Virus record (IMG/VR): IMGVR_UViG_3300027917_004307
Source: a virus
Lineage: Duplodnaviria; Heunggongvirae; Uroviricota; Caudoviricetes
DNA: 41,103 nucleotides
Strand: one strand, 5' to 3'
Shown: positions 181 through 40,218 of the stretch, in pieces
Layout of the letters: each line of letters opens with the position of its first letter
How positions within the stretch are numbered: the stretch's first letter is position 1
Made by a program: the position numbers and the translations under genes
Notes under the pieces: generated by a model
Databases searched by the model: none
The model's input: only the letters and a program-made list of their open reading frames with translations
Told to the model about the DNA's origin: nothing

Positions 181-574
181 TAGTATATCCAAACAGTGCA
201 TCTAGCATCTTATTTATCACATTAGGATCTGCGACACTAATTGTATTGGTAGAATAGTAGCGCGGCACTTCCCTATAACATACAATTAAATCATCTATAA
301 TGTGTATATACATTGCAACTGTGCGGTCAGATTTCTTGGCTATAAATAGCGCTGGCCCGTAAGTATGTGGAGCGCGTGTAACCCCCCGTTCAGCATAAAA
401 ATTACCAAACCTGTCAGAACGTGCCAATTCATCTAACACGTACTGTATGACAATCTCATGATCGTCAAGGCGTTCCTTTATGCTTCCCTTATGCTTCCCT
501 TGGCTTTCGCGCATCTCTTGCATTTCGAAATATCCATCTGGCGCTTGGCGGAAGCTCTCGCTCCCGCCAAGCAA
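158..574 (-). CDS. Hypothetical protein, outlying member of the Lx(D/E/N)P paralogue family; start uncertain
   Basis: C-terminal ISVADPNVINKML matches the motif in the paralogues at 28322-39995. The annotated start lies at a hairpin (543-572), so the true start is probably downstream. Confidence 0.55.
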   Translation of the reverse strand: MLGGSESFRQAPDGYFEMQEMRESQGKHKGSIKERLDDHEIVIQYVLDELARSDRFGNFYAERGVTRAPHTYGPALFIAKKSDRTVAMYIHIIDDLIVCYREVPRYYSTNTISVADPNVINKMLDALFGYTNECLPHT

Positions 575-765
575 TTTTATTGGATCTCAAATAAGATCGG
601 AGAGTCAATCCTCTCCCTTGGATACCTGTCCCCTGGAGGCTTTGTTCCATCGGGAGTCAGGCTCAATAAAATTTTGAGTGCCTAAGGCTAACTCCTAACG
701 AGCCCTGGTCCAACATTTGAGATGGTAAGGCTGAAGGGTTGTCGGCAGCCAATCCCATCGAGATC

Positions 766-1146
766 CTACTCAAAAACTTCACTGATTATCTTACTTCGTA
801 CGAATTCTTCAATGTCTTTATCTAATGGTCGTTTGTGTTTTATAGCATGCAGCACATCTGCAGAATTAGTCCAACCGCCCACCCCGAAAGTACTTCCCTG
901 CGTGGTTCCGACCCAATTCGCATCTATAATCTCATCGCCATCAGTAAGCAATTTATATTGTCTCTTTGGACCATTCCATTTGCCAAAGCTTGCTTCAATG
1001 AACAACCATAATTCCCCATCGTGCGGAACGTATGCCTTATCTATCGATTCACGTAAAATTCTATCACCGTCTACATAAAACAGCTCAAGCTTTTCAACCC
1101 CACCGAGCCCAATAGGATCGTATAACTTAAGCAACTTCTTAGCCAC
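766..1146 (-). CDS. Hypothetical phage protein
   Basis: 126-aa ORF co-oriented with the operon; no recognised motif. Confidence 0.65.
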   Translation of the reverse strand: MAKKLLKLYDPIGLGGVEKLELFYVDGDRILRESIDKAYVPHDGELWLFIEASFGKWNGPKRQYKLLTDGDEIIDANWVGTTQGSTFGVGGWTNSADVLHAIKHKRPLDKDIEEFVRSKIISEVFE

Positions 1147-12400: not shown

Positions 12401-13414
12401 CTATCTGGAATTACGAAGCATGACCAATGAGGTAGGTGTAGCTGGTTTCATATGCGCTTCGATATATTGTTGTGGATCTATGCCAGCCACTTTTAGGTCA
12501 TTCCAGTCTTTATACGGGTCTTTAGGAAATGCGAAATATATTTCGAAGTATGGTCTCAACAGTTCATAATTATCCAGAACTGCATTTACACCAGGCCTTA
12601 TACCCCTTGCGTCTGGTTGATCATTATCACCACCAAGAATTACAACACTAGGGTTAAGTGATCTAGCCTTCCTAACCTGGCGTTTCGATATTGTTGCTCC
12701 CCCAGTAGCAACCGCTCCTGGGCCTATGCTTATTGAATCAATCGCAGCTTCCACAACAATTAGTGGATCTCCTGGTTCAGCATTGTCAAATCCATACAAA
12801 AATTCAGTTTTAGATGAGCCTTCTGGATATTCAAAAATCTTACCAACTAATGACCTCCGCATCCAATAAACCACCACACCAAATTCAACATACGGCAATA
12901 TAATAGAAGTACTATCATAATGAATAAAAGCCTGTTTTGCCTCTTCCAACGTTATAGCACGTGATTTTAAATAATTAACTGCCATATTATATGCAGTAGA
13001 GTCCGATTCATCCGCGATACTTCTGGCTGAGTTTGGCAATGCAACTTCAACTTCTTCTGGCAGCTTTTCTTCTGTCTCATTTTCTTTGTTGAAGAATGTT
13101 CTTGGATCAATTGCGATCCCACATACTTCCTTTACAGCATCTCGGTATGTGATGTTTTTATAATCAGAAACAAACCTGAAAAACGAGCCGTCATGTTCTT
13201 GATGCCCCGGTCTCCAATCATGAACCCAATACCCCTTTCTTTTATCCTTTCCAGTACCTATCTCCTTTTCCACAAGACTTATATTAAAATGCTTGCCACT
13301 ATCACCCCATGGATTAGCTATAACAACTTCTACACCATTTTTCCTCACTTTATAGTCATCAAAATGCTTTTTTAACCAGGTGAGGATGTGATCACCAGTG
13401 AGATGCATATTCAT
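12401..13414 (-). CDS. DNA primase (TOPRIM, DnaG/gp61-like) with degenerate Zn-binding domain
   Basis: VVEAAIDSISI (catalytic E), GGDND (DxD), KDWND. The N-terminal domain reads ANPWGDSGKHFNI where CPxCGD is usual. Confidence 0.8.
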   Translation of the reverse strand: MNMHLTGDHILTWLKKHFDDYKVRKNGVEVVIANPWGDSGKHFNISLVEKEIGTGKDKRKGYWVHDWRPGHQEHDGSFFRFVSDYKNITYRDAVKEVCGIAIDPRTFFNKENETEEKLPEEVEVALPNSARSIADESDSTAYNMAVNYLKSRAITLEEAKQAFIHYDSTSIILPYVEFGVVVYWMRRSLVGKIFEYPEGSSKTEFLYGFDNAEPGDPLIVVEAAIDSISIGPGAVATGGATISKRQVRKARSLNPSVVILGGDNDQPDARGIRPGVNAVLDNYELLRPYFEIYFAFPKDPYKDWNDLKVAGIDPQQYIEAHMKPATPTSLVMLRNSR

Positions 13415-28831: not shown

Positions 28832-29006
28832 TTGGATTGGGGCATTATTTGGTTCCTTCATCTTTTCAGCCATTGGATTATGTCCTGGAATGCATGATGA
28901 CGACGATGAGCCCGAACGTTGTCCAGCAACTGGGTGGGTCATCACCAACACTGACGAAGATGGGAACGAATATACGATGAAAGATGGACCTGGCGGTACT
29001 AAATAA
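28818..29006 (+). CDS. Small membrane-anchored/secreted hypothetical protein
   Basis: GGAGGGG SD; hydrophobic N-terminus, acidic tail. Confidence 0.55.
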   Translation: MDFLDWIGALFGSFIFSAIGLCPGMHDDDDEPERCPATGWVITNTDEDGNEYTMKDGPGGTK

Positions 29007-29109
29007 TGCCAATGCGTTCCCGATGTATTTAATGTGTCAGGTTCTGGTCAAATGTAAATAGGGTGGGATTTCCCACCACGTTCAGAGAGATTCTAAGAAG
29101 TGGAATTCA

Positions 29110-29305
29110 GACCCTTACAGCCCGAACGACTTAGGTCACGGCATTGGCTGCCAACAGGTAGCCCGTGTGTCGTGGCCGAGGTCGCGACGACCAAGATTAA
29201 AGGATATGATTCCTTTAATCAAGGCTCGGCAGGGCCGTAAGGGGTTAAGAACATTCTGGAAACCAATCAAGACCCCTTGCGGCCAACCGGCCTCAAGGGG
29301 TCTTG
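29110..29305 (+). ncRNA. Unassigned multibranch structured RNA (ncRNA-A)
   Basis: Helices 29112-23/29232-43, 29175-80/29225-30, 29195-204/29211-20 (10 bp perfect), 29268-79/29294-305 (12 bp perfect). Confidence 0.55.
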
Positions 29306-29322
29306 CTTTATTAGGACTTTTT

Positions 29323-29396
29323 GCGAGCATCGTTCAATGGTAGGACGTGAGACTTCCACTCTCAAAATGAGGGTTCGATCCCCTCTGCTCGCACCA
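29323..29396 (+). tRNA. tRNA-Gly(TCC)
   Basis: GCGAGCA/TGCTCGC acceptor; TGAGA-CT TCC AC-TCTCA; GGTTCGATCC; CCA. Confidence 0.95.
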
Positions 29397-29400
29397 GGAC

Positions 29401-29609
29401 AGACGTGGGATCTGGAGCGGTTTAGTCACCGTTAAGGATACTCACGGCGGGTGAGGTGTTTTTTCTGTGCCTTTTGGGACCACCAGCGTTCACTCAAAAA
29501 AGGCACCGTGTTATGAAAGGACTCAGAAACGGGGACGCAAGGCGTGAGATTTGCTAGACTGGCACTTGGATCGCTGGTGCTCTCGTGGAGACCCAAGTAA
29601 TAGCACGTT
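29401..29609 (+). ncRNA. Unassigned structured RNA with loop-loop pairing (ncRNA-B)
   Basis: GTGCCTTTT/AAAAGGCAC helix; loop CACCAGCG (29481-88) complementary to CGCTGGTG (29572-79); ends ACGTG/CACGT. Confidence 0.5.
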
Positions 29610-29611
29610 AT

Positions 29612-29687
29612 GGGCGTGTAGCTCAGTTGGGAGAGCGCTTGCTCGGCAGGCAAGAGGGCGTCGGTTCGATTCCGATCACGTCCACCA
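29612..29687 (+). tRNA. tRNA-Ala(GGC), atypical C33
   Basis: G3.U70 pair; CTTGC-TC GGC AG-GCAAG; CCA. Confidence 0.9.
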
Positions 29688-29702
29688 GAAAGGAGGTGAA
29701 AG

Positions 29703-29801
29703 ATGTCAAGGAGAGCAAAGAAGGAGGAGAGGAACAGGCGTCGTAAGATGCAGAAGAAGGAAGAGGATGCTAAGAGGAAAGAGAAGAAAGCTAAAGACTG
29801 A
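29703..29801 (+). CDS. 32-aa highly basic peptide
   Basis: AAGGAGGTGA SD, ATG..TGA: MSRRAKKEERNRRRKMQKKEEDAKRKEKKAKD. Confidence 0.7.
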   Translation: MSRRAKKEERNRRRKMQKKEEDAKRKEKKAKD

Positions 29802-29858
29802 GCTAGGTAGGAAGCTTTGGGCAATCAGACAGAAAATTGCTTTAGAAAGGCATGGAAT

Positions 29859-29930
29859 GGGTCGCGCTCTGGGTAAGCGGGTCGGTCTCCAAAACCGACA
29901 GCCTGCGGGGTTCGATTCCTCGGCGGCCTG
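29859..29930 (+). tRNA. tRNA-Trp(CCA), atypical D-arm, no encoded CCA
   Basis: TCGGT-CT CCA AA-ACCGA; GGTTCGATTCC; G73; the 8/9 connector appears to be missing. Confidence 0.7.
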
Positions 29931-29971
29931 TTAGAAATGGCTACGAATTTCTGGTGGATTCTAAAATTTAC

Positions 29972-30048
29972 GGCCCCGTAGCCAAATGGATGAAGGCACC
30001 GGATTACGAATCCGGCAATTGCAAGTTCGAATCTTGCCGGGGTCACCA
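29972..30048 (+). tRNA. tRNA-Arg(ACG)
   Basis: CCGGA-TT ACG AA-TCCGG; A20; CCA. Confidence 0.95.
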
Positions 30049-30078
30049 CGCTCTTGAGTGAGCGAGTTCTTTGACAAT
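30049..30078 (+). promoter_or_regulatory. boxB-like hairpin plus boxA-like antitermination element
   Basis: CGCTC-TTGAGT-GAGCG then AGTTCTTTGACAAT, resembling rrn boxA (E. coli TGCTCTTTAACA). Confidence 0.45.
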
Positions 30079-30081
30079 TAT

Positions 30082-30209
30082 GGCCGTGGGTGCGCTTGCG
30101 GCAACGGGCCAAACGCGGCATGCGTGTCGTAGGCTCTGAAAGTAAGCATCCGGGCTAGGAGCAATCCTAGCCCTTATGGGGACGGGCCGGGTAACTCCCG
30201 GCCCTCCCC
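30082..30209 (+). ncRNA. Unassigned structured RNA (ncRNA-C); the last hairpin may be a terminator
   Basis: GGGCTAGGA-GCAA-TCCTAGCCC (9 bp, GNRA); GGGCCGGG/CCCGGCCC plus GGGGA/TCCCC; GGGTGC/GCATCC long-range helix. Confidence 0.45.
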
Positions 30210-30241
30210 TCCTTTTACCTCCAATAGATATTATCAAAGCT

Positions 30242-30317
30242 GGGGCAGTGGTGTAGTGGCTAACACACTGGCCTGTCAAGCCAGAGATCGCGGGTTCAAG
30301 TCCCGTCTGTCCCGCCA
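30242..30317 (+). tRNA. tRNA-Asp(GTC)
   Basis: CTGGC-CT GTC AA-GCCAG; G73; CCA. Confidence 0.95.
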
Positions 30318-30318
30318 G

Positions 30319-30400
30319 GCCCAGAGATTTGGGTTCAAATCCCATGACCAGCAGGATGAGTAAGCCTGTTGTGATAGCTTAATCTGGTAAAGTGCTGGGC
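30319..30400 (+). ncRNA. Circularly permuted tRNA mimic Y1 (YrlA-like)
   Basis: GCCCAG - T-arm (GGGTTCAAATCCC) - CAGCAGG/ATGAGTAAG/CCTGTTG - D-arm (GCTTAATCTGGTAAAGT) - CTGGGC. Confidence 0.7.
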
Positions 30401-30441
30401 GTGATTACGAAGCCAGAAAATACTGGCACAATATAGAGAGA

Positions 30442-30581
30442 AACCGGAAGCGGGGGTTCGAATCCCTCCCATCGCAGGATGAATAAACCTGTTCGGGTGG
30501 CCTAGTCATGAGTTGGCTTGCAGAATGAATAACTCTGCTTGGGGCTATACCTGGTGGTAGTTTAGCGGCAGAACGCCGGTT
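30442..30581 (+). ncRNA. Circularly permuted tRNA mimic Y2 with duplicated acceptor-loop hairpin
   Basis: AACCGG - T-arm - CCATC - two ATGAATAA-loop hairpins - GGTGG - D-arm (GTTTAGCGGCAGAAC) - CCGGTT. Confidence 0.65.
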
Positions 30582-30590
30582 CGAAAATGA

Positions 30591-30691
30591 AGCCAGAGGC
30601 GCGGGTTCGATTCCCGCCTCCCCCCTCATCTAGAGGGCTAGGATGAGTAAGCCTACGCAGCGGGGAGTAGCTCAGTGGTAGAGCACTGGCT
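30591..30691 (+). ncRNA. Circularly permuted tRNA mimic Y3
   Basis: AGCCAG - GCGGG TTCGATT CCCGC - CTCCCC ... TAGG/ATGAGTAAG/CCTA ... GGGGAG - GCTCAGTGGTAGAGC - CTGGCT. Confidence 0.75.
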
Positions 30692-30700
30692 AAAAGAAAA

Positions 30701-30765
30701 GCCAGAGATAACCCCTGGGCAAGCAGTGGGATGAGTAAGCCCACTCAGGTAGGATTAACTCTGGC
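30701..30765 (+). ncRNA. Degenerate permuted module Y4 (T/D arms lost)
   Basis: GCCAGAG/CTCTGGC closing stem around AGTGGG-ATGAGTAAG-CCCACT. Confidence 0.5.
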
Positions 30766-30770
30766 ATTAA

Positions 30771-30845
30771 TCCGGCGTGGCCTAACGGAAAGGCGGCGAG
30801 CTGTTAACTCGTAAGATGGTGGTTCAACTCCACCCGCCGGAGCCA
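30771..30845 (+). tRNA. tRNA-Asn(GTT)
   Basis: TCCGGCG/CGCCGGA; GCGAG-CT GTT AA-CTCGT; G73; CCA. Confidence 0.95.
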
Positions 30846-30862
30846 ACCAGCGTGGTCCTCTA

Positions 30863-30967
30863 CAAGAATTTCAGACGTTCTCTTTGGGAGGTTGCAGGTT
30901 CGAGTCCTGTCCCCCGGATCATCCGGGGGTAGCTCAATTTGGTAGAGCGCTAGTCATTTTATTCTTG
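30863..30967 (+). ncRNA. Circularly permuted tRNA mimic Y6
   Basis: T-arm GCAGG TTCGAGT CCTGT, closed acceptor CCCCCGGA-TCA-TCCGGGGG, D-arm GCTCAATTTGGTAGAGC, distal stem CAAGAAT/ATTCTTG. Confidence 0.7.
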
Positions 30968-31070
30968 TTCAATGACCCGCATTTTTAATAATTTTTCATC
31001 GGGCTCCGCGCCGGACTTAGTCTCCATAAGTATTTTAATCATAGAATTACGTTAAGGACAAAAGAGGTGT

Positions 31071-31301
31071 ATGATGGTCAGGATCGGTGCCGTTGCGGGA
31101 ACCGCTGCAGTAGCAGTAACATACCTCATAATCTTCTTCATCATGTCTAACCTAGAGCGAAAGCATGGGCAGACACCTAACTCTGATTACATGGCAGGTG
31201 TATTGGGTGTGCTTCTGGCGTGTGGGGTTCTATTGATAGATCTAATCTTCTTCATCGTATGGATCGTGAGCAATTTTGGGGCGGTAGCTCAGCCTGGTTA
31301 G
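31071..31301 (+). CDS. Small two-TM membrane protein, paralogue of 27559-27774
   Basis: AAGAGGTG SD; shared MMV...AVT.YLI...DL..I.W pattern. Confidence 0.65.
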   Translation: MMVRIGAVAGTAAVAVTYLIIFFIMSNLERKHGQTPNSDYMAGVLGVLLACGVLLIDLIFFIVWIVSNFGAVAQPG

Positions 31302-31310
31302 AGCATATGG
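31278..31310 (+). pseudogene. Orphan tRNA 5' half
   Basis: GGGGCGG TA GCTC AGCCTGGTTA GAGC with no T-arm or acceptor partner nearby. Confidence 0.55.
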
Positions 31311-31330
31311 TAAAACATTGGAGATAACAA

Positions 31331-31543
31331 ATGAATATCATCCTACCATTCGAATCATTTCCTTTACTATACGAATCACGAACCAGGACCCTCAAAAATG
31401 GTCAGAAATACAGGATCATTATGTATCGCAATGGACGCCAGAGAATAATCGGGTTCTACGTAAAAGATTATAATGATGGTTGGTGTGTCTCACATTCAAT
31501 TGGCGTTACTAAAAACGACCTAAAACGAATGTTAGAATGTTAA
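31331..31543 (+). CDS. Hypothetical protein
   Basis: GGAG SD; 70 aa. Confidence 0.55.
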   Translation: MNIILPFESFPLLYESRTRTLKNGQKYRIIMYRNGRQRIIGFYVKDYNDGWCVSHSIGVTKNDLKRMLEC

Positions 31544-31544
31544 T

Positions 31545-31618
31545 TGCCCCGTCGTCTAATGGTAGGACGCCAGGTTCTGGCCCTGGCAGTGAGGGTTCGA
31601 AACCTTCCGGGGCAACCA
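31545..31618 (+). tRNA. tRNA-Gln(CTG)
   Basis: TGCCCCG/CGGGGCA; CCAGG-TT CTG GC-CCTGG; CCA. Confidence 0.95.
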
Positions 31619-31689
31619 AATGGATGTTGATTGCTTATAAATATGGCCTTGATTTTTTCCACTTTACTTCATATATCAGAGGGACAATT

Positions 31690-32043
31690 ATGGATAGAGA
31701 ACCATGCAAACTAGTGGTAGCGTGGTTGCAAGAAAAAGGAGTACAAGCTTTTTTGTCCCCAAGTGGCTTGGCAATTCATAAAAACGGCAAACCAGTAGTG
31801 ATGTTCATTATTGACTTAGATCTGAATTTAATCGTCGTATCGTCGCATAAAAAATTTATCAATCTATCAAGAAACTACGACTTAAATAATCCAGATAGTT
31901 TGCCAAATTTATACGACAGATTGGTAAGCCTGGGCTATCACAATTACAAGCCAACAGAACGCGACTATCACTATTGCTATGATAAAAACTTTGAAATTAG
32001 GTTAAACGGCAACGCAGAGCAAGACGAATGTGGATACAAATAG
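31690..32043 (+). CDS. Lx(D/E/N)P paralogue family protein
   Basis: Start MDRE (the track's upstream extension overlaps tRNA-Gln); VVAWLQEKGV...YDLNNPDSL. Confidence 0.7.
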   Translation: MDREPCKLVVAWLQEKGVQAFLSPSGLAIHKNGKPVVMFIIDLDLNLIVVSSHKKFINLSRNYDLNNPDSLPNLYDRLVSLGYHNYKPTERDYHYCYDKNFEIRLNGNAEQDECGYK

Positions 32044-32486
32044 GAGCGGTGGCGTAACGAGATGGACGGGGCTTCCGGCAAGAACCTGCATGATCAGGAT
32101 AGTTTCCAAAAATACTCAATTTTATTGAAGAAGAACTGAATCCATGGTAGAAATCGAAAGGTTGGTGATGGAGTTCCTTCGCGAGAAAGGATATTGGGTT
32201 ATCCACGAACCCCGGTACAATAGGTTTCGGGTTATTAAAGTAACAAGAGGCGAGCATTTTGAAACACAAATATTATTGGCAATTTACACAATTGTTGGTG
32301 ATAAAATATGTATAATGTACGCAAAATTTCACCCAAAGCCGTTTAGCATTTACAGCAAAGAAGATTTCGCTAAAATGCTCAAGTTTTTGAAACAAAGGGA
32401 ACGCGATAGCGCAGATGTCATGCATTCAACATCGACTGGCTGGGATACACAACACTACACAGCGGTATAGGAGCGGTGGCGTAACG
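32040..32486 (+). repeat. 20-nt direct repeat ATAGGAGCGGTGGCGTAACG (32040-59, 32467-86)
   Basis: Both copies contain an ORF stop (TAG) fused to the tRNA-Phe 5' sequence; the first copy is not followed by a complete tRNA. Confidence 0.85.
32144..32470 (+). CDS. Lx(D/E/N)P paralogue family protein (divergent)
   Basis: LVMEFLREKGY N-terminal motif; C-terminal motif degenerate (IYSKEDF). Confidence 0.65.
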   Translation: MVEIERLVMEFLREKGYWVIHEPRYNRFRVIKVTRGEHFETQILLAIYTIVGDKICIMYAKFHPKPFSIYSKEDFAKMLKFLKQRERDSADVMHSTSTGWDTQHYTAV

Positions 32487-32545
32487 GAAGCGCAGCGCAC
32501 TGAAAATGCGCAGGTGATCGGGTTCGACTCCCTCCCGCTCCACCA
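32470..32545 (+). tRNA. tRNA-Phe(GAA)
   Basis: GGAGCGG/CCGCTCC; GCGCA-CT GAA AA-TGCGC; bulged T-stem; CCA. Confidence 0.88.
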
Positions 32546-32640
32546 GATCCACCTGCTAAAAGTCTAACAGAAATAAAAAATGCTCAGTAAGATGCGCTCA
32601 TAGATTCACAATGGAAGAAATTGATTGCACAACACTTCGA

Positions 32641-32716
32641 GGGCGGGTAGCTCAGTTGGGAGAGCGTCTGGTTTGCAACCAGAAGGTCGTCGGTTCGATT
32701 CCGATCCTGTCCACCA
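32641..32716 (+). tRNA. tRNA-Ala(TGC)
   Basis: G3.U70; TCTGG-TT TGC AA-CCAGA; CCA. Confidence 0.96.
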
Positions 32717-32782
32717 GAGATGAGGTCTTCACACTTACAATCCTTCTACGTGACCTACATGGATATTATAGAATACATTTAT

Positions 32783-32869
32783 GCGTCGGCTGAGCATTGG
32801 CGAGCTCAAGTGGCTGTAACCCACCCGCCCTTTGCGGCTTTGGGGGTTCGACTCCCTCCCGGCGCACCA
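32783..32869 (+). tRNA. tRNA-Tyr(GTA)
   Basis: GCGTCGG/CCGGCGC; loop CT GTA AC; long variable arm; CCA. Confidence 0.9.
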
Positions 32870-32896
32870 GAATTGGCCCCCAGGCTCCATTATCTA

Positions 32897-33047
32897 CGGC
32901 TGGGGTTGAGTCGAGATGCTCGTAGCAGCTCGGCAGCGCATAAACTAGTGGGAGACACCGTTGAGACTCTGTTGAAACTCGACAGGTCGCTAAACCGGCC
33001 CCCTCAATGTTGTGACGCTTGCACAAGCTATCGACCCCAGCCAACCA
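32897..33047 (+). ncRNA. Unassigned structured RNA with 12-bp terminal helix and ACCA tail (ncRNA-D)
   Basis: GGCTGGGGTTGA (32898-909) pairs with TCGACCCCAGCC (33031-42), then AACCA. Confidence 0.55.
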
Positions 33048-33078
33048 GCGAAGACCTATTAGCGAAAGGAGGTGTCGA

Positions 33079-33150
33079 TTGAAGTGTACTTGCTACGACA
33101 GAGAACAAACTGCTGTTCCTTTGTGTCCAATACACGGTTCACCAATGTAA
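33079..33150 (+). CDS. 23-aa Cys/His peptide (putative micro Zn finger)
   Basis: AAGGAGGTG SD, TTG start: MKCTCYDREQTAVPLCPIHGSPM. Confidence 0.6.
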   Translation: MKCTCYDREQTAVPLCPIHGSPM

Positions 33151-33182
33151 TCTTGGGGGTTGCGCATCCATAACACGCAAAT

Positions 33183-33272
33183 GGGAGTTGTTCCACGACC
33201 AGCCACCCATTTATCATTAAAGGCCACGAGTTTTGCAGACTCGCGTGGAAAGTTCGATTCCTTCAACTCTCA
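33183..33272 (+). pseudogene. Pseudo-tRNA, Ala(TGC)-like anticodon arm with disrupted D region
   Basis: GGGAGTT/AACTCTC acceptor, CGAGT-TT TGC AG-ACTCG, GTTCGATTC; ~36-nt aberrant D region; no G3.U70, no CCA. Confidence 0.45.
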
Positions 33273-33276
33273 TAAA

Positions 33277-33350
33277 TGCCCCGTAGTGTAATGGAAGCAC
33301 GAGCGGCTTTGACCCGCTTAGCGAAAGTTCGAACCTTTCCGGGGCAACCA
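33277..33350 (+). tRNA. tRNA-Gln(TTG)
   Basis: TGCCCCG/CGGGGCA; AGCGG-CT TTG AC-CCGCT; CCA. Confidence 0.95.
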
Positions 33351-33539
33351 GATCACCCGAGCCACCGCTGGAAACAGAGGAAGGTCAGGACACCACTGCT
33401 TAAGGTGGGAGGGAATTTTCCCGCTTACCACCAAGGGTGCAATCTCAAGCAGGCTGAGAGTGTGAGCAGCTCTACGAAAGCCGGGTAGAGAGCAAAGATT
33501 AATGGTGGCATAGAACAGAATCCTGCCTACTGGGTGATC
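33351..33539 (+). ncRNA. rnpB: Miniature RNase P RNA (catalytic domain only)
   Basis: P1 GATCACCC/GGGTGATC; P2 GCCACC/GGTGGC; P3 CTG-GAAA-CAG; CR-I GAGGAAGGTCAGGA pairs with TCCTGCC (P4, bulged U); P5 CACC/GGTG then CAA; P6 CTGCTT/AAGCAG; AGATTAATG (CR-IV); ACAGAATCCTGCCTA (CR-V). Confidence 0.9.
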
Positions 33540-33599
33540 TTTGATATTAAAGTATTTTATTACTCGTTTATATGATTCACATCAAAACCTGATAACTAT

Positions 33600-33750
33600 G
33601 GGGAAGTAGCTCAACAGGATAGAGTTAGTATGGCGGACCTACATCTTGTAGTCCTATCTATCGGCTAGTGCAGATAGGCAACGCCAGATGGACGGACCGT
33701 CAGAATACCCCGTATGGGTGACGTGGGTTCGAGTCCCACCTTCTCCACCA
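33600..33750 (+). ncRNA. tRNA-like RNA with Ala identity and an expanded multibranch anticodon domain
   Basis: GGGGAAG/CTTCTCC (G3.U70), A73, CCA; D-arm GCTC..GAGT; T-arm GTGGG TTCGAGT CCCAC; ~70 extra folded nt in the anticodon position. Confidence 0.8.
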
Positions 33751-34047
33751 ATGGAAACAACAGAAATATTGAAAGAATTAATCGATGAGCTTGGATATCA
33801 AGCCATAATTTATGATCTCATACCGCATTGGATCGGCGAATGTTACCGAACTATTGATGTAATCAGCCCCAGTACGTGGCCACGCAATAACGTAATCGCT
33901 ACTATCAAGGTTGACGGCGTCTTCATACATATCTTTAAGCGTGTTCTCGGAGGCCGGGGGCGTATAGAATCTAGCCATCAGCTAAGTTTATACGAACCGG
34001 ATTCATTCTGTAGAATAAAAGAAATATTAGCTGAATTAAATGACTAA
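33751..34047 (+). CDS. Lx(D/E/N)P paralogue family protein
   Basis: ATG immediately after CCA; ILKELIDELGY...LSLYEPDSF. Confidence 0.7.
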   Translation: METTEILKELIDELGYQAIIYDLIPHWIGECYRTIDVISPSTWPRNNVIATIKVDGVFIHIFKRVLGGRGRIESSHQLSLYEPDSFCRIKEILAELND

Positions 34048-35491
34048 AAAGAAACAAAAAGAACTTGATTTCATGAACGATCCACGGTACCATTACCAAA
34101 GGTCGCATGTGTCTGATGTCGTTGGAACGATCGATATTGATCGTTATCTCAAATGGTGTAAAGACAATGGATTCAAGGCTACCATATACAAAAGTTGGTT
34201 TGACATGAAGAAGGAAAAGTTGTACATCGCCAGAAAGAAATGCGACGAAAAACTGTTGGCCAGAAGGAAATTCAAGAATCCAAGGAAAGCACTGGATCTC
34301 GTGTTCGACTCAGACATCGTCGGCGCTGACGCGGCGTACAAAAATTTATACTCTAGAATAAAAACACTCAACAAGAAAGACAAAACCAAGTTCAAAAAGC
34401 TTATTACACATATCTACAAACATTCTGATATCCTCAAAGACCCGCCGTTGATAACGGGACTCCTGAACATCATGAAGTGGGAGCCTTATTACATAAATCG
34501 CCCAACGGAGTGGATGCCTAAGACACATAACACAAGAAGACAATTTTCTGATTTGCTTAGGCATTCTTTCTGCAAATACGATGTGCCAAAATTCATGGAC
34601 GAGGTGTGGTTCTCCGAATATGACGGAGCAATAGCCGGAGCAATAGCTGCTGAACTCAAGAGGGAATGGTTCATTTTCATTGGCCAGGGAGGAAATCTTA
34701 GGAAGGCTAGGAAACTACCATTCGAGGTGACGAAGAAGATCGCGCATTATTTTATGCAGGCTCCTGGCAATTTTTCAGTTGAAAACGCACTAATATGGGG
34801 AGTCGTGCACAGCATGGGCGGCGACAAACGAACCGTCGAGGGCATCCTCAGCACCAAAAGAAACGGACAGCTTAATCGACACAATTTCTGGGTAACGGTC
34901 TATAGATTCTTCGTCAACAACCCGATGCTAGACACAGCCCAATACAACCCAATCGTCGACTATATCGATGCCATGAAATATCAACCGCAATATGAATGGA
35001 CGGAACCAGGCATCAGAGTGGAGCGCCCGCCGATTCAGCCGAATTTTATGATGCGTGGAAGAACCGCTTTCTCGCTGTTAAGGCAAGTGGAAGCCTGGCA
35101 TAAGAAACTCGGCAAAGAGAAGAAAGGTGGGAAACTACAATGGGAGAAGAGTAAGTATAATGGATTTGAGTGCCAGACCGGTGAAAGAAGGAACGTCAAA
35201 ATTTGGACTATCAACGAATTGTTGTCAAGCGATGAGCTAATACAAGAAGGGAAAACAATGCGGCATTGCGTGGCGTCTTACGCTCGTTCCTGCCAGAGCC
35301 AAAGGGTCAGCATTTGGTCGATGAAGGTAGATACATGGGAAGGCAAGAAGAACGTACTGACCATCGAAGTCAGAGATGGAACAATCATGCAGGCCCGTGG
35401 CAAGAGAAACGAAAGACCCACAGAGGAAGCCAAGAACATCATAAAAAAGTGGAAGAAAACCCAAGGTCTCGGAATCAGTTCTTATATTTAA
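34040..35491 (+). CDS. PcfJ-domain protein
   Basis: C-terminal ELIQEGKTMRHCVASY...SIWSM...LTIEV..GTIMQARGKRN is the PcfJ-like signature. Confidence 0.85.
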   Translation: MTKKKQKELDFMNDPRYHYQRSHVSDVVGTIDIDRYLKWCKDNGFKATIYKSWFDMKKEKLYIARKKCDEKLLARRKFKNPRKALDLVFDSDIVGADAAYKNLYSRIKTLNKKDKTKFKKLITHIYKHSDILKDPPLITGLLNIMKWEPYYINRPTEWMPKTHNTRRQFSDLLRHSFCKYDVPKFMDEVWFSEYDGAIAGAIAAELKREWFIFIGQGGNLRKARKLPFEVTKKIAHYFMQAPGNFSVENALIWGVVHSMGGDKRTVEGILSTKRNGQLNRHNFWVTVYRFFVNNPMLDTAQYNPIVDYIDAMKYQPQYEWTEPGIRVERPPIQPNFMMRGRTAFSLLRQVEAWHKKLGKEKKGGKLQWEKSKYNGFECQTGERRNVKIWTINELLSSDELIQEGKTMRHCVASYARSCQSQRVSIWSMKVDTWEGKKNVLTIEVRDGTIMQARGKRNERPTEEAKNIIKKWKKTQGLGISSYI

Positions 35492-37131
35492 AACATATTC
35501 ACAAGTACAGACGTTGTGAAAACCGAATCGTCATAATCAACTACTTCGCCATCTTTCACGATGACATAATATAGAGTATTGTCTGGCGGCACACCAAGCT
35601 TTGGGTAAAAATGCTCACCACCGAATGCTGCGTCTTCATCGTGCGCAATAGGGGTGAAGTAAAATAATGCCTTAAAATTATTTGGGAAGTCGTAATTATG
35701 CCTAATGGTATTCAAAAAATCGGTTAACCCAGATGGTGGCTCACCGTCTCTGGTGCGCTCAAATGCCGAAGCAAACTCTTCTCTATATAATTTGTTGAGA
35801 TCAGCTGTAGCATAGTCTAAACTAGTGAGCACACTAGTTAGCTTTGTCACCAACCCAGACTGCCCTTGGGCATGCAGAAACTCACGAGGTGTAAATGACG
35901 TACCCTTTGGTGCGTCAAGCACATCTTCCATTTCTCTTTGTCTATATTCTCTGTATCTATACGTCTTTTGAGCTATATCCTTGGCTTCGTCCTCTCTGTC
36001 CTTGTAATTATCGTACGTAAATCTGATATCAAAATGCTTGACTTCTTCTTTTTCACCAGTAACTATCGTCATAAGTATCGTAAATACCGATGGATCCTTG
36101 AAAACAAGAGGAAAGTGAATATACCACGGTTCATTACTATTTGGTGGTTCCGGATATGGTGCTACTTTAACAACCGTGGCATCCCCTTCTTCGTCATCGC
36201 CGTATGCGTCAGAGTATGCCATACCATACATCTTGTCCCTGATGCCCGTCTCAAATCCTAGTTGCCCTTTGCTCTTAATCCAATCTCTAGCTATGCCTTC
36301 TAAGTTGTTTGTAGTATCTTCACCATATGCTTCGTCTTCTGGCATTGCTTTGAATCTAACATCACCAGTTGCCGGATTTATAAACATAAATTTTCTTATC
36401 ATTATCCTGGCGGTTGGATCTTGGATACCTTGCTCCGGATGGATTCCATTTTTCCTAAGAACATCTTTCTTAACAAGATACATTATGAAACCACCACACA
36501 TTATTTCATACCATGCCTTGGTTGCTTCTCTTATATTAGTACATGATGTCCACCCTCGGTCTTCGCTCATCCTTAGAATATCAACTGGGCTTTTGGAGAC
36601 TATAACCCAATAATCATTTGGGTTGACAATTTCTCTGTGCTCAAAATCATCTGCCATCCGTTGTAGGTGCTCTTGATAATTTTCGTAGTTTATACCTTCC
36701 ATTTCACCATCAACAAATTTTCCGCCATATTTGTCTACATACCCATATGTGAATAAATTCTTTTCATGTGGCTTCTTAGCTTTTCTCAGTATTTTACCGA
36801 TTCTTAGCAGATTGCCTCTATAGTTAACATAACCCTTAATAAGATCAACACCACCAAGCCCAACAGCATATTCAAGTGTGTCTTCCAGCCTCTCCAACCA
36901 AATAGTTCTTTCGACAGCTGGTTCGGCATCAAACTCCTTTATTAAAACCCTATCTTCATCAATCTTATTTGGATCATTCTCAAACCATTCATCAAAGACA
37001 GACTGATCGCGTGCTAGCCTATAGAGGGTGTGAAGCTCTTCCTTGCTGAGATCCTCAAGGATAGGGTCAACAAGAAAGCTGACGTATTCTGGGTCAACCA
37101 TCTCCCTTATATTTTCCAGAAAGTATTTCAA
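35488..37131 (-). CDS. Hypothetical phage protein (547 aa); start may be 37101
   Basis: Long ORF opposite to the array; VSKSPVDILRMSEDRGWTSC and PTARIMIRKF look like conserved motifs; stop overlaps the PcfJ stop (TTAA). Confidence 0.75.
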   Translation of the reverse strand: MKYFLENIREMVDPEYVSFLVDPILEDLSKEELHTLYRLARDQSVFDEWFENDPNKIDEDRVLIKEFDAEPAVERTIWLERLEDTLEYAVGLGGVDLIKGYVNYRGNLLRIGKILRKAKKPHEKNLFTYGYVDKYGGKFVDGEMEGINYENYQEHLQRMADDFEHREIVNPNDYWVIVSKSPVDILRMSEDRGWTSCTNIREATKAWYEIMCGGFIMYLVKKDVLRKNGIHPEQGIQDPTARIMIRKFMFINPATGDVRFKAMPEDEAYGEDTTNNLEGIARDWIKSKGQLGFETGIRDKMYGMAYSDAYGDDEEGDATVVKVAPYPEPPNSNEPWYIHFPLVFKDPSVFTILMTIVTGEKEEVKHFDIRFTYDNYKDREDEAKDIAQKTYRYREYRQREMEDVLDAPKGTSFTPREFLHAQGQSGLVTKLTSVLTSLDYATADLNKLYREEFASAFERTRDGEPPSGLTDFLNTIRHNYDFPNNFKALFYFTPIAHDEDAAFGGEHFYPKLGVPPDNTLYYVIVKDGEVVDYDDSVFTTSVLVNMF

Positions 37132-37136
37132 TAAAT

Positions 37137-37496
37137 ATGGAGATACATGACTTAATTGCTGAAGCGTTAAAGGATTTAGGCCACACAGAGATTCTAAAGA
37201 GTGGAAAGATTAGAGTCACTACTGGTATAGGATCTGCCAGATTCAAAATAACCGATATGAAATTCACGTGCTGTTCAGCAACTACTGACGCTGGCAATAC
37301 ACTTGAAATAGATCTGCATGAACCAGACAGCATAAGAAAAGTCGCAATAATGGTACTAAAATGTTTACATCGTCGTCATGCTTGGGATATCTATTACTTG
37401 CCATGCTCATCATGCCCATTTAATCTAGAATCTAAAAATGGGCCAGTGATCGCATCACCAGAAAGACACCTTAGAAATAATCCAAATAAATTATGA
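37137..37496 (+). CDS. Lx(D/E/N)P paralogue family protein
   Basis: LIAEALKDLGH...IDLHEPDSI, C-terminal CSSCP. Confidence 0.75.
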   Translation: MEIHDLIAEALKDLGHTEILKSGKIRVTTGIGSARFKITDMKFTCCSATTDAGNTLEIDLHEPDSIRKVAIMVLKCLHRRHAWDIYYLPCSSCPFNLESKNGPVIASPERHLRNNPNKL

Positions 37497-37813
37497 AAGA
37501 CATAGAAATAATTGTGCTGGCCATAAACAAAATGGGTTACAGAATACGCAGTACAACCCGAAACAGTAGCAACGACGACATTGTAGTGTCGCTCGAAGGC
37601 TTCAATGACGAAACTGAATATAGGTTTGTTTCAATCACAGTTAGAGGTTCAAGACTCAGGCTATCTAACTGCCAATACGAAATAGACCTGTGTGACCCTG
37701 ATAGCCTTAGGCTCCTAAACAAAGCAATCGACTATCATGGAACATTGCCTAAAAATTATTCGTGCAGCAAATGCCCGTTAAATATTTATTTGATTGGCAC
37801 TACGTTCATGTAA
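37493..37813 (+). CDS. Lx(D/E/N)P paralogue family protein
   Basis: IVLAINKMGY...IDLCDPDSL, C-terminal CSKCP. Confidence 0.75.
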   Translation: MKDIEIIVLAINKMGYRIRSTTRNSSNDDIVVSLEGFNDETEYRFVSITVRGSRLRLSNCQYEIDLCDPDSLRLLNKAIDYHGTLPKNYSCSKCPLNIYLIGTTFM

Positions 37814-37815
37814 AT

Positions 37816-37887
37816 GCGGCTATGGTGTAATGGTAACACGTCGGTCTGCCAGTCCGGAGATGCTGAGTTCGATTCTCGCTAGCCGCT
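37816..37887 (+). tRNA. tRNA-Gly(GCC), no encoded CCA
   Basis: GCGGCTA/TAGCCGC, U73; loop CT GCC AG; imperfect anticodon and T stems. Confidence 0.8.
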
Positions 37888-37890
37888 TAA

Positions 37891-37960
37891 GGTCAGAGAT
37901 CCGGGTTCAAATCCCGGCGGTACCGGCCATACTGTAGCTTAACTTGGTAGAGCGCTGGCC
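37891..37960 (+). ncRNA. Minimal circularly permuted tRNA mimic Y5
   Basis: GGTCAG - CCGGG TTCAAAT CCCGG - CGGTA/CCGGCCA loop/TACTG - GCTT AACTTGGTA GAGC - CTGGCC. Confidence 0.75.
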
Positions 37961-37964
37961 ACGA

Positions 37965-38038
37965 GTCCCTGTGGTGTAACGGTAGCACGGCACTCTGATA
38001 AGGTGTAGGCGAAGGTTCAACTCCTTCCAGGGGCACCA
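37965..38038 (+). tRNA. tRNA-Ile(GAT)
   Basis: GTCCCTG/CAGGGGC; GCACT-CT GAT AA-GGTGT; CCA. Confidence 0.9.
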
Positions 38039-38350
38039 ATGAACGAATGTGAAATGATAGCAAAAGAGCTACGAATCCATGGCGTCAAAGCGTTCTATAA
38101 CGACGAACATATGTTTGGGATAATCAAACCGCACACGCCAATGTATAGCAGTAGCAAATACGGAGATAGTGGCTTCGGGAGGTTGGTCACATTCACGGTT
38201 AAGGATGGGATAATAATCTGCTCAGATAAAGACCGGATTTATAATTTACACGAACCAAGATCATTGGGTCAGCTCATAAAGTCAATCAAGTTGTGTGAAC
38301 AAAGGACAAGTTGCCATCAAAAATGCGAGTTTAAAAGCCGAAATATGTGA
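38039..38350 (+). CDS. Lx(D/E/N)P paralogue family protein
   Basis: ATG immediately after CCA; IAKELRIHGV...YNLHEPRSL. Confidence 0.75.
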   Translation: MNECEMIAKELRIHGVKAFYNDEHMFGIIKPHTPMYSSSKYGDSGFGRLVTFTVKDGIIICSDKDRIYNLHEPRSLGQLIKSIKLCEQRTSCHQKCEFKSRNM

Positions 38351-38624
38351 AATCTTGGAGAAGTCGCTTATATACCACGGCTTTGTCGTCGTATGGAGTG
38401 ACAACAGCCTCGGGCCCTATATAATTTATAAGCAACAATCATCCCTTATTGGTGGGAAAATAGTTGATTCTTTCCCGCATGGCACGGTGCACATAATTAT
38501 TGATAATTTAGTGTTAAATAGATTCCCATCCAACCACACAGTGCCAGCAAAAATACCACTTGCCGATCCGGATTGCTTCAATAAAGCAGTTGAATTTATA
38601 GTATTTGACAGGTTGCGATTGTAG
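38295..38624 (+). CDS. Lx(D/E/N)P paralogue family protein; start uncertain
   Basis: ILEKSLIYHGF...IPLADPDCF. Confidence 0.65.
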   Translation: MNKGQVAIKNASLKAEICEILEKSLIYHGFVVVWSDNSLGPYIIYKQQSSLIGGKIVDSFPHGTVHIIIDNLVLNRFPSNHTVPAKIPLADPDCFNKAVEFIVFDRLRL

Positions 38625-38688
38625 TTCAATGGTAGAACATGAGCTTCCCACGCTCAAGACGGCGGTTCGATTCCGCTCAGTCGCTTCA
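38615..38688 (+). tRNA. tRNA-Gly(CCC), 3' end TCA
   Basis: GCGATTG/CAGTCGC, U73; TGAGC-TT CCC AC-GCTCA. Confidence 0.9.
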
Positions 38689-38763
38689 GGTGGCTGTAGC
38701 TCAGTGGTAGAGCGTCGGGTTGTGGCCCCGAAGACGGCGGTTCGATTCCGCTCAGTCGCCCCA
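38689..38763 (+). tRNA. tRNA-His(GTG) with encoded G-1
   Basis: G-1:C73; TCGGG-TT GTG GC-CCCGA; CCA. Confidence 0.93.
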
Positions 38764-38790
38764 GATGATTAGTGAAAACTTTCTATTTGA

Positions 38791-38877
38791 TTGCAGAGAA
38801 GACGCACAAAGCTGAATCTTTATGACCCAGAATCATTACCACACTTATTGAGAGCAATTAAGAATGGCAATCGATGA
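38791..38877 (+). pseudogene. C-terminal remnant of the paralogue family
   Basis: Own translation LQRRRTKLNLYDPESLPHLLRAIKNGNR*, with an in-frame stop at 38788-90. Confidence 0.55.
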
Positions 38878-39250
38878 TGGTTATATAATTTATGGCAACA
38901 AAACCATTATATGCAACAGTACTAAAACACCGAATTATACGGTTTCCCAGTTATACAAATGGTTGTCACACACGTGGAATGATGACAACGCATTAAGCAG
39001 GCAAGAAGTAGCTAGTTTGATAACCGCATGGTTGTCAGAGAAAGGCTATAATGTTAGAGTTGACAGCCAATGTGGCTGGTCGTTAAACATTGTCAATGGA
39101 AACAACAAAGCGAATTTGTATGTCGAGTCAAACGCTGTGACGATAGAAGTCGATACATATAATAAGATCAAAAGCTATAATCTATATAATCCAGATAGCC
39201 TGCAGAAAATATTAGAGCATATAAGTGTTCTCGGAAGCGGCATGAAGTAG
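38864..39250 (+). CDS. Lx(D/E/N)P paralogue family protein with N-terminal extension
   Basis: LITAWLSEKGY...YNLYNPDSL. Confidence 0.75.
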   Translation: MAIDDGYIIYGNKTIICNSTKTPNYTVSQLYKWLSHTWNDDNALSRQEVASLITAWLSEKGYNVRVDSQCGWSLNIVNGNNKANLYVESNAVTIEVDTYNKIKSYNLYNPDSLQKILEHISVLGSGMK

Positions 39251-39268
39251 TGGTTGAGGACGGCTCCA

Positions 39269-39346
39269 CGGGCCTTAGTGAAGTTTGGTTATCACGCCAC
39301 ATTTGGGATGTGGAGAGCGCGGGTTCGACTCCCGCAGGCCCGATCA
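39269..39346 (+). tRNA. tRNA-Pro(TGG), 3' end TCA
   Basis: CGGGCCT/AGGCCCG; CCACA-TT TGG GA-TGTGG. Confidence 0.92.
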
Positions 39347-39349
39347 ATC

Positions 39350-39423
39350 CGCGCCGTGGCCTAATTTGCTAAGGCACCCGGTTCGGGTCCGGGGGATTGC
39401 TGGTTGGAATCCAGTCGGCGCGA
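39350..39423 (+). tRNA. tRNA-Pro(CGG) with C19-G56 swap, no encoded CCA
   Basis: CGCGCCG/CGGCGCG; CCCGG-TT CGG GT-CCGGG; D-loop TGCTA, T-loop TTGGAAT. Confidence 0.88.
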
Positions 39424-39500
39424 TTAGTAGGAGAGACGGCAATGAAACCGCTCAGAAATGTCCAACAGCCCTGAATAATTGCCACAATGACAACCTAATC

Positions 39501-39576
39501 GCCCCCGTAACTCAATGCACAGAGTAACCGGCTTCTATCCGGTAAGTTGCAGGTTGAAATCCTGCCGGGGGTACCA
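39501..39576 (+). tRNA. tRNA-Arg(TCT) with C19-G56 swap
   Basis: ACCGG-CT TCT AT-CCGGT; D-loop ATGCACA, T-loop TTGAAAT; CCA. Confidence 0.9.
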
Positions 39577-39593
39577 GAAATGACGGTCGAATA

Positions 39594-39995
39594 TTGCATT
39601 TGAATGTGCGGTCAATGGTTTGGAATAATGGGAAATTCTTGACTTCTTCACCTACGAAGTATGCTTCCCTTGGCTTTAAATTTACATTGGCAGAAGAACA
39701 CAAGCTAATAACAACTGTGCTGCATGAATTGCAAAATCATTTGCGTACATCTTTACCACTCGGCTACCAATTCTGCTACATCGTAAAGCACGCAGATGAG
39801 TCCTGGTTTGAAATGTTTTGTGTAGTAAGAACAGATTACAACCATCACTGGCGAGTGCGTATCACAATCAGCGGCAATATTATCATAGAGATGGATGGCA
39901 CACGGACGTACAAATCGACCATAGCCAATCCAAATTGCTTTGAAGAGATAACTGAACTAATCTGCCATAATGAAGCCAAACAGCTTAGAACATAA
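39594..39995 (+). CDS. Lx(D/E/N)P paralogue family protein; start uncertain
   Basis: C-terminal STIANPNCFEEI. Confidence 0.6.
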   Translation: MHLNVRSMVWNNGKFLTSSPTKYASLGFKFTLAEEHKLITTVLHELQNHLRTSLPLGYQFCYIVKHADESWFEMFCVVRTDYNHHWRVRITISGNIIIEMDGTRTYKSTIANPNCFEEITELICHNEAKQLRT

Positions 39996-40218
39996 AATCA
40001 TGGTCGAAGCAGCGTTGAATATCCGAGATTTACTCGAAGTATGCTTGCCAGAAAATTTTGAATGCGGCCAAATCCACAGCCGCACGGGTCGCTGCGGATA
40101 CGTTAAATTCATGGTGATACCAGACGTAAATTTCGGCGGTGGATATATGGTTGTAATAAAAGATGGCGTCATAAACGTGTATTTCGGGGAGAGGCATGCA
40201 TTACCAACAGCAGCATGA
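39970..40218 (+). CDS. Hypothetical phage protein, probably truncated at the junction
   Basis: Final residues (RHALPTAA) are read from the antisense strand of the bacterial gene. Confidence 0.45.
   Translation: MKPNSLEHKIMVEAALNIRDLLEVCLPENFECGQIHSRTGRCGYVKFMVIPDVNFGGGYMVVIKDGVINVYFGERHALPTAA

Follow-up and report, generated by a model that had tools for sequence, protein, structure and literature searches.

Positions 30319-30765 of a 41,103-nucleotide stretch of DNA (hereafter the window) from the Caudoviricetes virus record IMGVR_UViG_3300027917_004307 fill a gap on the plus strand between the tRNA-Asp and tRNA-Asn genes of a phage transfer RNA (tRNA) array, and comprise three full modules (M1, M2 and M3) and one bare hairpin (M4). 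In each full module the order is closing stem, T-arm, capped acceptor, D-arm, closing stem. Comparison with related phages indicates that the modules are real and under selection, M1 being more conserved than the adjacent tRNA, and that the permuted module is an inherited, constrained unit; it is the relatives that settle the permuted reading. We put at roughly 50% the probability that the block is a lineage-specific family of small non-coding RNAs with a permuted tRNA body (T-arm, D-arm, elbow nucleotides and acceptor-like helix), its modules being processed, stable tRNA-body mimics that display a protein-recognition hairpin.

An earlier interpretation of the stretch (the sequence-only reading) had described four permuted modules with exact end-to-end pairings, GCCCAG/CTGGGC, AACCGG/CCGGTT, AGCCAG/CTGGCT and GCCAGAG/CTCTGGC. 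All four pairings are present, and the description holds for M1, M2 and M3; M4 is a hairpin only, irregular by folding (z = -3.18), in which, as had been pointed out, the conserved loop is kept though the T- and D-arms are gone. Canonical T-loops are found in M1, M2 and M3. In M1, M3 and Y5, a minimal M1 paralogue elsewhere in the array, the D-arms contain U8, A14, G18G19, A21 and the R15:Y48 pair, and G53:C61 and the TTCRAWT T-loop are also kept (tRNA numbering). A 6-bp stem replaces the anticodon arm and the acceptor is closed by a hairpin; the modules thus have neither an anticodon loop nor a CCA end, no CCA following position 73, and their acceptor strands form 4/7 pairs in M1 and 6/7 in both M2 and M3. 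When M1 and M3 are each folded alone, the minimum-free-energy (MFE) structure is the permuted cloverleaf. For M2 the constrained permuted fold lies at -39.9 kcal/mol against a minimum free energy of -44.6 kcal/mol; its true 5' half is the second candidate, so that the cap extends to about 75 nt and encloses two loop hairpins, M2a and M2b.

It should be emphasized that the window by itself barely supports a permuted reading, since similar tRNA genes set in a row give the appearance of permutation by their very arrangement. The conventional pairing of adjacent halves had been dismissed as mismatched, which is not clearly so: the anticodon-stem equivalents of neighbouring modules form 4/6 (M1-M2), 5/6 (M2-M3) and 6/6 (M3-M4) pairs, the last as a perfect local hairpin at 30686-30705, and the acceptor 5' strand of M1 makes 5/7 pairs with the 3' strand of M2 against 4/7 with its own. 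Read conventionally, 30368-30476 scores 30.2 bits with the Rfam tRNA model, with a 45-nt insert, and is the sole Rfam tRNA match in the block; ARAGORN calls zero tRNAs within 30318-30770. The window alone therefore cannot decide the fold. Dimers of tRNAs are also false positives for models of YrlA, a bacterial Y RNA (Chen et al. 2014, PMC4201824). A covariance model of our own (R1), whose training sequences included M1, M3 and Y5 and excluded M2 and the Y5 orthologue of a related array (L030), gave 27-37.5 bits on true tRNA-tRNA junctions from this array and from T4, 74-99 bits on M1, M3 and Y5, and 67 bits on the untrained Y5 orthologue. The proposal that a module is merely the junction of two ordinary tRNA genes was rejected, as no complete tRNAs overlap its T-arm and D-arm sides.

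A pattern scan of metagenomes recovered an M1 orthologue (L005:921-1002) that is identical at 77/82 positions (93.9%), in a locus where the adjacent tRNA-Asp is 70.1% and the tail 72% identical. Two of the five differences form a compensatory change from C:G to A:U in the closing stem, two fall at variable loop positions (R57 and D-loop 16/17) and one weakens an acceptor pair. In L005 a complete tRNA-Asp is followed by the M1 orthologue, a small hairpin and an open reading frame (ORF), with M2-M4 absent; as M1 here has a complete tRNA upstream and an ORF downstream, it cannot be half of a tRNA dimer. The hairpin in the spacer behind M1 also changes in a compensatory manner, from GCCAG/CTGGC to GTCAG/CTGAC, and the CACAATATAGA that follows it is invariant. 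Y5, whose T- and D-arms are nearly identical to those of M1, sits between tRNA-Gly and tRNA-Ile and has a 5-bp acceptor stem; its orthologue (L030:149-219, minus strand; R1 67.1 bits) lies between complete tRNA-Ile and tRNA-Gly genes and has changed in a compensatory way in both its T stem and its acceptor hairpin. Since M1 in L005 and Y5 in two phages stand alone, the permuted module itself is an inherited unit that has been maintained. Covariation counted over five sequences of the family, with which a MAFFT-based count over four agrees, finds 91% of cells paired and changes on both sides in 11/25 pairs; the closing helix is 100% paired across the family, with G:C, C:G and A:U all occurring at one position. 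No shuffle matched the observed values on 4/5 measures, and slid controls were 31-53% paired.

The five copies of the 9-nt loop ATGARTAAV to which the sequence-only reading drew attention (30356, 30479, 30525, 30643 and 30731) were all confirmed as hairpin loops. The motif has seven matches in the window, five of them within 384 nt, against 3.4 expected (41-kb window, both strands); its occurrence in the window is clearly not random. Each copy is closed by 4-7 consecutive pairs, in stems that differ in sequence and covary (AGG/CCU in M1, M2a and M3, AGA/UCU in M2b and GGG/CCC in M4; GC/GU against GU/AC), and a block of 13-15 nt around the loop is identical in M1, M3 and M4, with different flanks. 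The expectation that the loop would be conserved in homologues is borne out in part: it is kept in L005, the only known M1 orthologue, but is absent from Y5 in both phages, where the caps are CCGGCCA and GTGACGAT, and three related arrays lack the block. In searches for the motif in its module context, a pattern of T-loop and capped loop had no match in IMG/VR and 11 in Joint Genome Institute (JGI) metagenomes, of which only L005 is homologous, the other 10 being plain tRNAs with unrelated hairpins behind them. A pair of capped loops spaced by 70-100 nt gave one match in IMG/VR, a protein repeat encoding LWMNNP. The T-loop/loop/D-arm pattern gave one chance match in IMG/VR and 67 matches in 185,579 species genomes, all of them ordinary tandem tRNAs with a chance spacer match (66/67 with a loop closed by at most three pairs), and a T-arm plus D-arm pattern specific to M1 and Y5 gave none in IMG/VR. 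Judged by this distribution, that is by its absence from Y5, from the related arrays L012, L013 and L030, from IMG/VR and from the species genomes, the cap hairpin is a lineage-specific payload on a variable acceptor cap and no defining feature of the mimic family.

The loop itself is a putative recognition site for a protein or nuclease. No perfect complement of it occurs on the plus strand of 28901-40000. As starts of micro-ORFs (the loops begin with AUG, and those of M1 and M2a would open 8-codon peptides) the copies were rejected because AGG abuts the AUG without any spacer; the gene calls have nothing at these sites, and the similarity of the peptides stems from shared stem nucleotides. 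The T4 gp43 operator loop AAUAACUC lies inside M2b only, which we take to be a coincidence. A CsrA/RsmA sponge, marked by GGA repeated in the short loops of hairpins and preceded by ACA, was likewise rejected: set beside the SELEX-derived consensus RUACARGGAUGU (PMC7652899), the GGA straddles the stem with its GG paired, there is no ACA, and M2b has GAA.

Table 1. Positions in the window of the modules and their parts, the flanking tRNA genes and two further small RNAs of the array
Feature	Position	Strand	Description
tRNA-Asp(GUC)	30242-30317	+	CCA encoded; ARAGORN; Rfam tRNA 71.1 bits
M1	30319-30400	+	Full permuted tRNA-like module; MFE fold a permuted cloverleaf; R1 98.9 bits (training sequence)
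M1 closing stem	30319-30324/30395-30400	+	
M1 T-arm	30329-30345	+	
M1 acceptor-like helix	30346-30355/30365-30374	+	Three non-canonical pairs beside the T stem
M1 cap loop	30356-30364	+	9 nt
M1 U8A9	30375-30376	+	
M1 D-arm	30377-30393	+	
Spacer hairpin	30411-30428	+	GCCAG-loop-CTGGC, then conserved CACAATATAGA; kept in L005
M2	30442-30581	+	Module with expanded acceptor cap; R1 45.3 bits (not in training)
M2 closing stem	30442-30447/30576-30581	+	
M2 T-arm	30452-30468	+	
M2 acceptor 3' strand	30469-30475	+	
M2 cap	30476-30550	+	About 75 nt; hairpins M2a (loop 30479-30487) and M2b (loop 30525-30533), degenerate first 5' half
M2 acceptor 5' strand	30551-30557	+	6/7 pairs
M2 D-arm	30560-30574	+	
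M3	30591-30691	+	Full module; MFE fold a permuted cloverleaf; R1 78 bits (training sequence)
M3 closing stem	30591-30596/30686-30691	+	
M3 T-arm	30601-30617	+	
M3 acceptor	30618-30624/30661-30667	+	6/7 pairs
M3 cap		+	Branched, 36 nt; small CCUC/GAGG hairpin and conserved-loop hairpin (loop 30643-30651)
M3 D-arm	30670-30684	+	
M4	30701-30765	+	65-nt irregular hairpin; 7-bp terminal stem; conserved loop 30731-30739; R1 only 20.8 bits
tRNA-Asn(GUU)	30771-30845	+	ARAGORN; Rfam
Y6	30861-30972	+	YrlA-like RNA with long distal stem; Rfam YrlA 44.5 bits, E 1e-8, model 1-114
Y5	37891-37960	+	Minimal 70-nt M1 paralogue; R1 74.1 bits (training sequence)

It could be argued that the block is non-functional debris, produced recently when tRNA genes of a highly plastic array recombined unequally and duplicated in tandem, and that its exact stems and common loop reflect recent shared descent and not selection. 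We regard this as unlikely while giving it real weight, and in the form in which it is the main rival, M2-M4 would be young duplication debris around one functional module, M1. A number of observations speak for it or count against a maintained family of mimics. No orthologue of M2-M4 was found, and both the ATGARTAAV loop and the M block are absent from the three closest arrays (L012, L013 and L030; gp13-like protein 76-81% identical), which after tRNA-Asp carry a CCA-ended minihelix, tRNA-Gln or the YrlA-like RNA Y6 instead; together with the absence of the capped motif in module context from IMG/VR and the 185,579 species genomes, this suggests that the block is young and dispensable for the clade. 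The degenerate, duplicated 5' half of M2 and the loss of both arms from M4 resemble decaying duplicates, the module starts repeat AAGCCAGAG of the 3' side of the tRNA-Asp anticodon stem, and a homing-endonuclease-type ORF at the same spot in L005 is a sign of local turnover; the neighbour pairings of 4/6 to 6/6 are also what tandem similar tRNAs would give. The folding energies of M1-M3 are no better than those of shuffles (z-scores an unremarkable -0.1 to -1.2, with the genuine tRNA-Asp at -1.1), and the identity of the loop in M1 and L005 carries little information, given 94% identity overall. Debris, however, would not be expected to be 94% conserved in M1 as against 70% in a real adjacent tRNA, with a compensatory change besides; nor does it accord with the tertiary-contact nucleotides, all intact in M1 and M3, with hairpin stems that covary around a fixed loop, or with the isolated position of M1 in L005 and of Y5 in two phages between complete tRNAs or genes, which indicates that the module was inherited. 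The debris explanation is retained because the block is absent from the closest arrays and M2 and M4 are irregular.

The remaining alternatives keep the modules as functional RNAs and assign them to known systems. YrlA consists of T, AS (closed acceptor) and D stem-loops with a Ro60-binding strand, GNCGAAN0-1G (Chen et al. 2014, PMC4201824), and the same order of T-arm, closed acceptor-like stem-loop and D-arm was confirmed in M1, M2 and M3, not in M4. The modules share with YrlA, in addition, the tRNA tertiary-contact nucleotides, the presence of several copies, the occurrence in phages and a variable acceptor stem-loop whose sequence is not conserved across the family. The term Y-RNA-like array is thus upheld by fold and covariation, but membership of the family is not upheld by scores, Ro motif or terminal helix. 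With the Rfam YrlA model (RF02553) M3 reaches 33.5 bits (model 30-81, the T/AS/D core), below the gathering score of 69 bits, and M1, M2 and M4 have no match at E <= 10; matches this weak are not diagnostic, since at E <= 1 the model fires in 13/14 control genomes. The sequence-only reading had seen neither a Ro-binding helix nor a Ro60 gene, and both observations stand: GNCGAAN0-1G is absent from 30200-31000 (elsewhere in 29001-40000 it has 5 matches against 4.7 expected by shuffling), the modules have no long (bulged) terminal helix, and TROVE is absent among the ORFs and called genes of the window, 41 kb of a 262-kb contig that leaves room for a linked Ro60, and from three related, fragmentary contigs (G001-G003). 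The modules differ from YrlA also in lying within a tRNA array and not beside rsr, and in a cap that bears the conserved 9-nt loop and is expanded to 36-75 nt in M2 and M3. That they are true Y RNAs, bound by a phage or host Ro60 and tethering or gating as YrlA does, is therefore distinctly unlikely, even though the topology is of YrlA type, Y6 matches the model over its full length, Y RNAs occur in tandem and in phages (PMC4201824; PMC12135203) and some jumbo phages carry TROVE proteins (PMC7824862). An improbable variant of the analogy is that the cap is cut out by RNase P together with a 3' nuclease, as happens in Mycobacterium smegmatis YrlA or permuted transfer-messenger RNA (tmRNA), leaving two base-paired halves that may receive CCA. 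The M. smegmatis YrlA, whose acceptor has 7 bp, undergoes RNase P cleavage and acquires CCA in vivo (PMC4201824), and by analogy M2 and M3, with their 6/7 acceptors, could be cleaved likewise; at the expected RNase P site M1 and M2a carry U (-1) followed by G (+1), and an RNase P-like RNA is encoded in the same array. Against this, the acceptor of M1 forms only 4/7 pairs, CCA is not encoded, in contrast to the adjacent tRNA-Asp, and the leader is paired with the trailer. When pairing lengthens the acceptor stem of a pre-tRNA, bacterial RNase P is inhibited at its catalytic step (PMC9433436), which fits a poorly cleaved binder or decoy better than a substrate. Two-piece tmRNA proper, itself a permuted gene with an acceptor stem closed by a loop (excised in the tmRNA), was rejected: the Rfam model (RF04321) gives 14.8 bits against a gathering score of 47, the alanine identity pair G3:U70 is missing (M1 has U3:A70), and both CCA and a tag reading frame are lacking. 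Kinship with rnaC and rnaD of T4, which are also small RNAs of the tRNA cluster in a T4-type genome, stable and co-processed with the phage tRNAs by annotation, was rejected as well, as there is no sequence or model similarity (R1 at most 14 bits) and rnaC, unlike the modules, has a 3' T-arm only and no permuted T/D pair. Permuted tRNA genes carry the 3' half upstream of the 5' half, with a short intervening sequence at the acceptor end. The modules have the same arrangement, joined at the acceptor end, and a closing stem as long as an anticodon stem; it is nonetheless very improbable that they become decoding tRNAs by way of a circular intermediate. When the ends are joined, the tails that follow the closing stems (GUGAUUA.., CGAAAAU.., AAAAGAA..) and the 1-nt leader after the tRNA-Asp CCA give no 7-nt U33 loop in M1, M2 or M3, the acceptors are mismatched (4/7 to 6/7), and the other features of the array are bacterial in type (RNase P and tmRNA matches with Rfam); bacteria are not known to possess the splicing endonuclease that this route requires. 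Relative to the permuted tRNA genes known from Cyanidioschyzon merolae, green algae and Thermofilum (reviewed in Soma 2014, PMC3978253), the modules have no reconstitutable anticodon loop, no bulge-helix-bulge motif and no CCA, their acceptors are imperfect and their context is that of a bacterial-type phage.

From the anatomy, fold and covariation of the modules, and from conservation above that of the neighbouring tRNA, we infer how they may be expressed, processed and bound. As tRNA-body mimics they would be co-transcribed with the tRNA array. Because tRNA-Asp ends 1 nt before the closing stem of M1, its 3' trimming would define the left end of the block, the right end being set by RNase P at tRNA-Asn, and RNase E-type cuts in the A-rich, single-stranded spacers of 8-41 nt would separate the modules. 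Each module would then fold into an L-shaped tRNA mimic and most likely act as a stable decoy or scaffold for proteins that recognise the tRNA body, while the acceptor cap would be a variable display site, occupied here by one or two hairpin copies whose AUGARUAAV loop would provide a sequence-specific handle for a putative protein or nuclease partner. A rather unlikely elaboration is that the modules are a natural counterpart of the engineered 'tRNA scaffold', displaying a short recognition hairpin in many copies. The tRNA-like body would in that case confer RNase P/E processing and stability, and the five AUGARUAAV hairpins together would act as a multivalent sponge or decoy for a host RNA-binding factor, or for a defence nuclease or sensor that is directed at tRNA and probes the acceptor end.

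The window belongs to a T4-like myovirus (jumbo phage). It encodes tail sheath, tape measure, baseplate wedge and hub, and gp13/gp15/gp19-type proteins, and derives from a 261,688-bp marine-sediment metagenome contig. Its plus strand carries, between 29.3 and 39.6 kb, 18 co-oriented tRNA genes by ARAGORN and 17 Rfam tRNA matches at the gathering score. No ORF is called inside the block in either the six-frame list or the public gene calls, and a promoter and terminator scan gave nothing informative. Among the sequencing runs listed as containing the stretch there is none of RNA; only the probable source sample contains it, and its contigs cover the block at about 6x depth with zero variants inside it. 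A blastn comparison of the block with 50,697 phage records returned tRNA-like pieces only. With the gp13-like protein as bait, three IMG/VR loci and L030 proved useful, relatives at or below 73% identity lacking synteny to the array; a PcfJ-like ORF used as bait found zero relatives in IMG/VR. Two contigs, 120-170 kb long, that have the same tail module of T4 type and a gp13 relative 73% identical (L032 and L033; GCA_038869295.1 and GCA_038848635.1) are filed under a Nitrososphaerales archaeon metagenome-assembled genome and are probably phage contigs binned with the archaeon.

Y6, just outside the block, is the best YrlA match in the window, although below the 69-bit gathering score. It has orthologues in L012 (1442-1561, minus strand) and on the reverse strand of L030 (5211-5340 and 5947-6090), in which both the distal stem (AAGAAU/AUUCUU against AGGAAU/AUUCCU) and the acceptor have changed in a compensatory manner; all copies are flanked by GGUC...GACC, and the canonical Ro motif is absent. 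A contig of another organism from the same sample, aligned at window positions 30617/30668, joins a T-arm and a D-arm through a closed acceptor of 16 nt (6-bp stem, UUCG loop), as in any ordinary module of YrlA type, which shows that such mimics are present in the community.

Within the tRNA array, a 197-nt stretch (33349-33545, plus strand) matches the bacterial type A RNase P RNA over the full model (positions 1-367). It scores 66.5 bits, short of the gathering score of 100, and may be a strongly reduced phage-encoded RNase P RNA; directly 3' of it, 33600-33750 (plus strand) holds a tRNA/tmRNA-like RNA that scores 35.9 bits with the Rfam tRNA model, with a long insert, and 31.7 bits with that of tmRNA. 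Upstream of tRNA-Asp, a 170-nt non-coding element (30050-30222, plus strand) is 83-87% conserved in two relatives (L005:1-186; L013 reverse strand 13112-13233) and contains a perfect hairpin, CCGGGCUAGGAG-loop-CCUAGCCC; no Rfam family matched it. Between that element and tRNA-Asp, L005 has an ORF with a LAGLIDADG-like motif (LGLYLGEGY; 199-855, plus strand), which has no counterpart in the window and is a sign of homing-endonuclease traffic in the array. The gap between tRNA-Asp and tRNA-Asn in L012 holds a 43-nt minihelix (reverse strand 13250-13292; 6-bp stem and T-arm, CCA end), and L030 (reverse strand 5735-5872) has an RNA that possesses the acceptor stem and T-arm of a tRNA and ends in ACCA, but has a large non-tRNA core.

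Y RNA-like tRNA mimics beside Ro60 are already known from bacteria and phages. What is new here is a minimal form free of the Ro motif, in tandem within a tRNA array, with an expandable acceptor cap that carries a conserved hairpin. Mimicry of tRNA by YrlA has so far been tied to Ro60; these modules are a minimal, Ro-motif-free version of it, and share a phage tRNA array with a second YrlA-like RNA and a reduced RNase P-like RNA. A small defined RNA, either the 82-nt module or a 23-nt hairpin, could be used to fish for the partner. Should the modules be expressed, the tRNA islands of phages would contain, besides decoding tRNAs, RNAs of tRNA shape that are unable to decode, whose only plausible role would be to engage proteins that recognise tRNA; this bears on the current question of how phages deal with host defences directed at tRNA and with the processing of tRNA.

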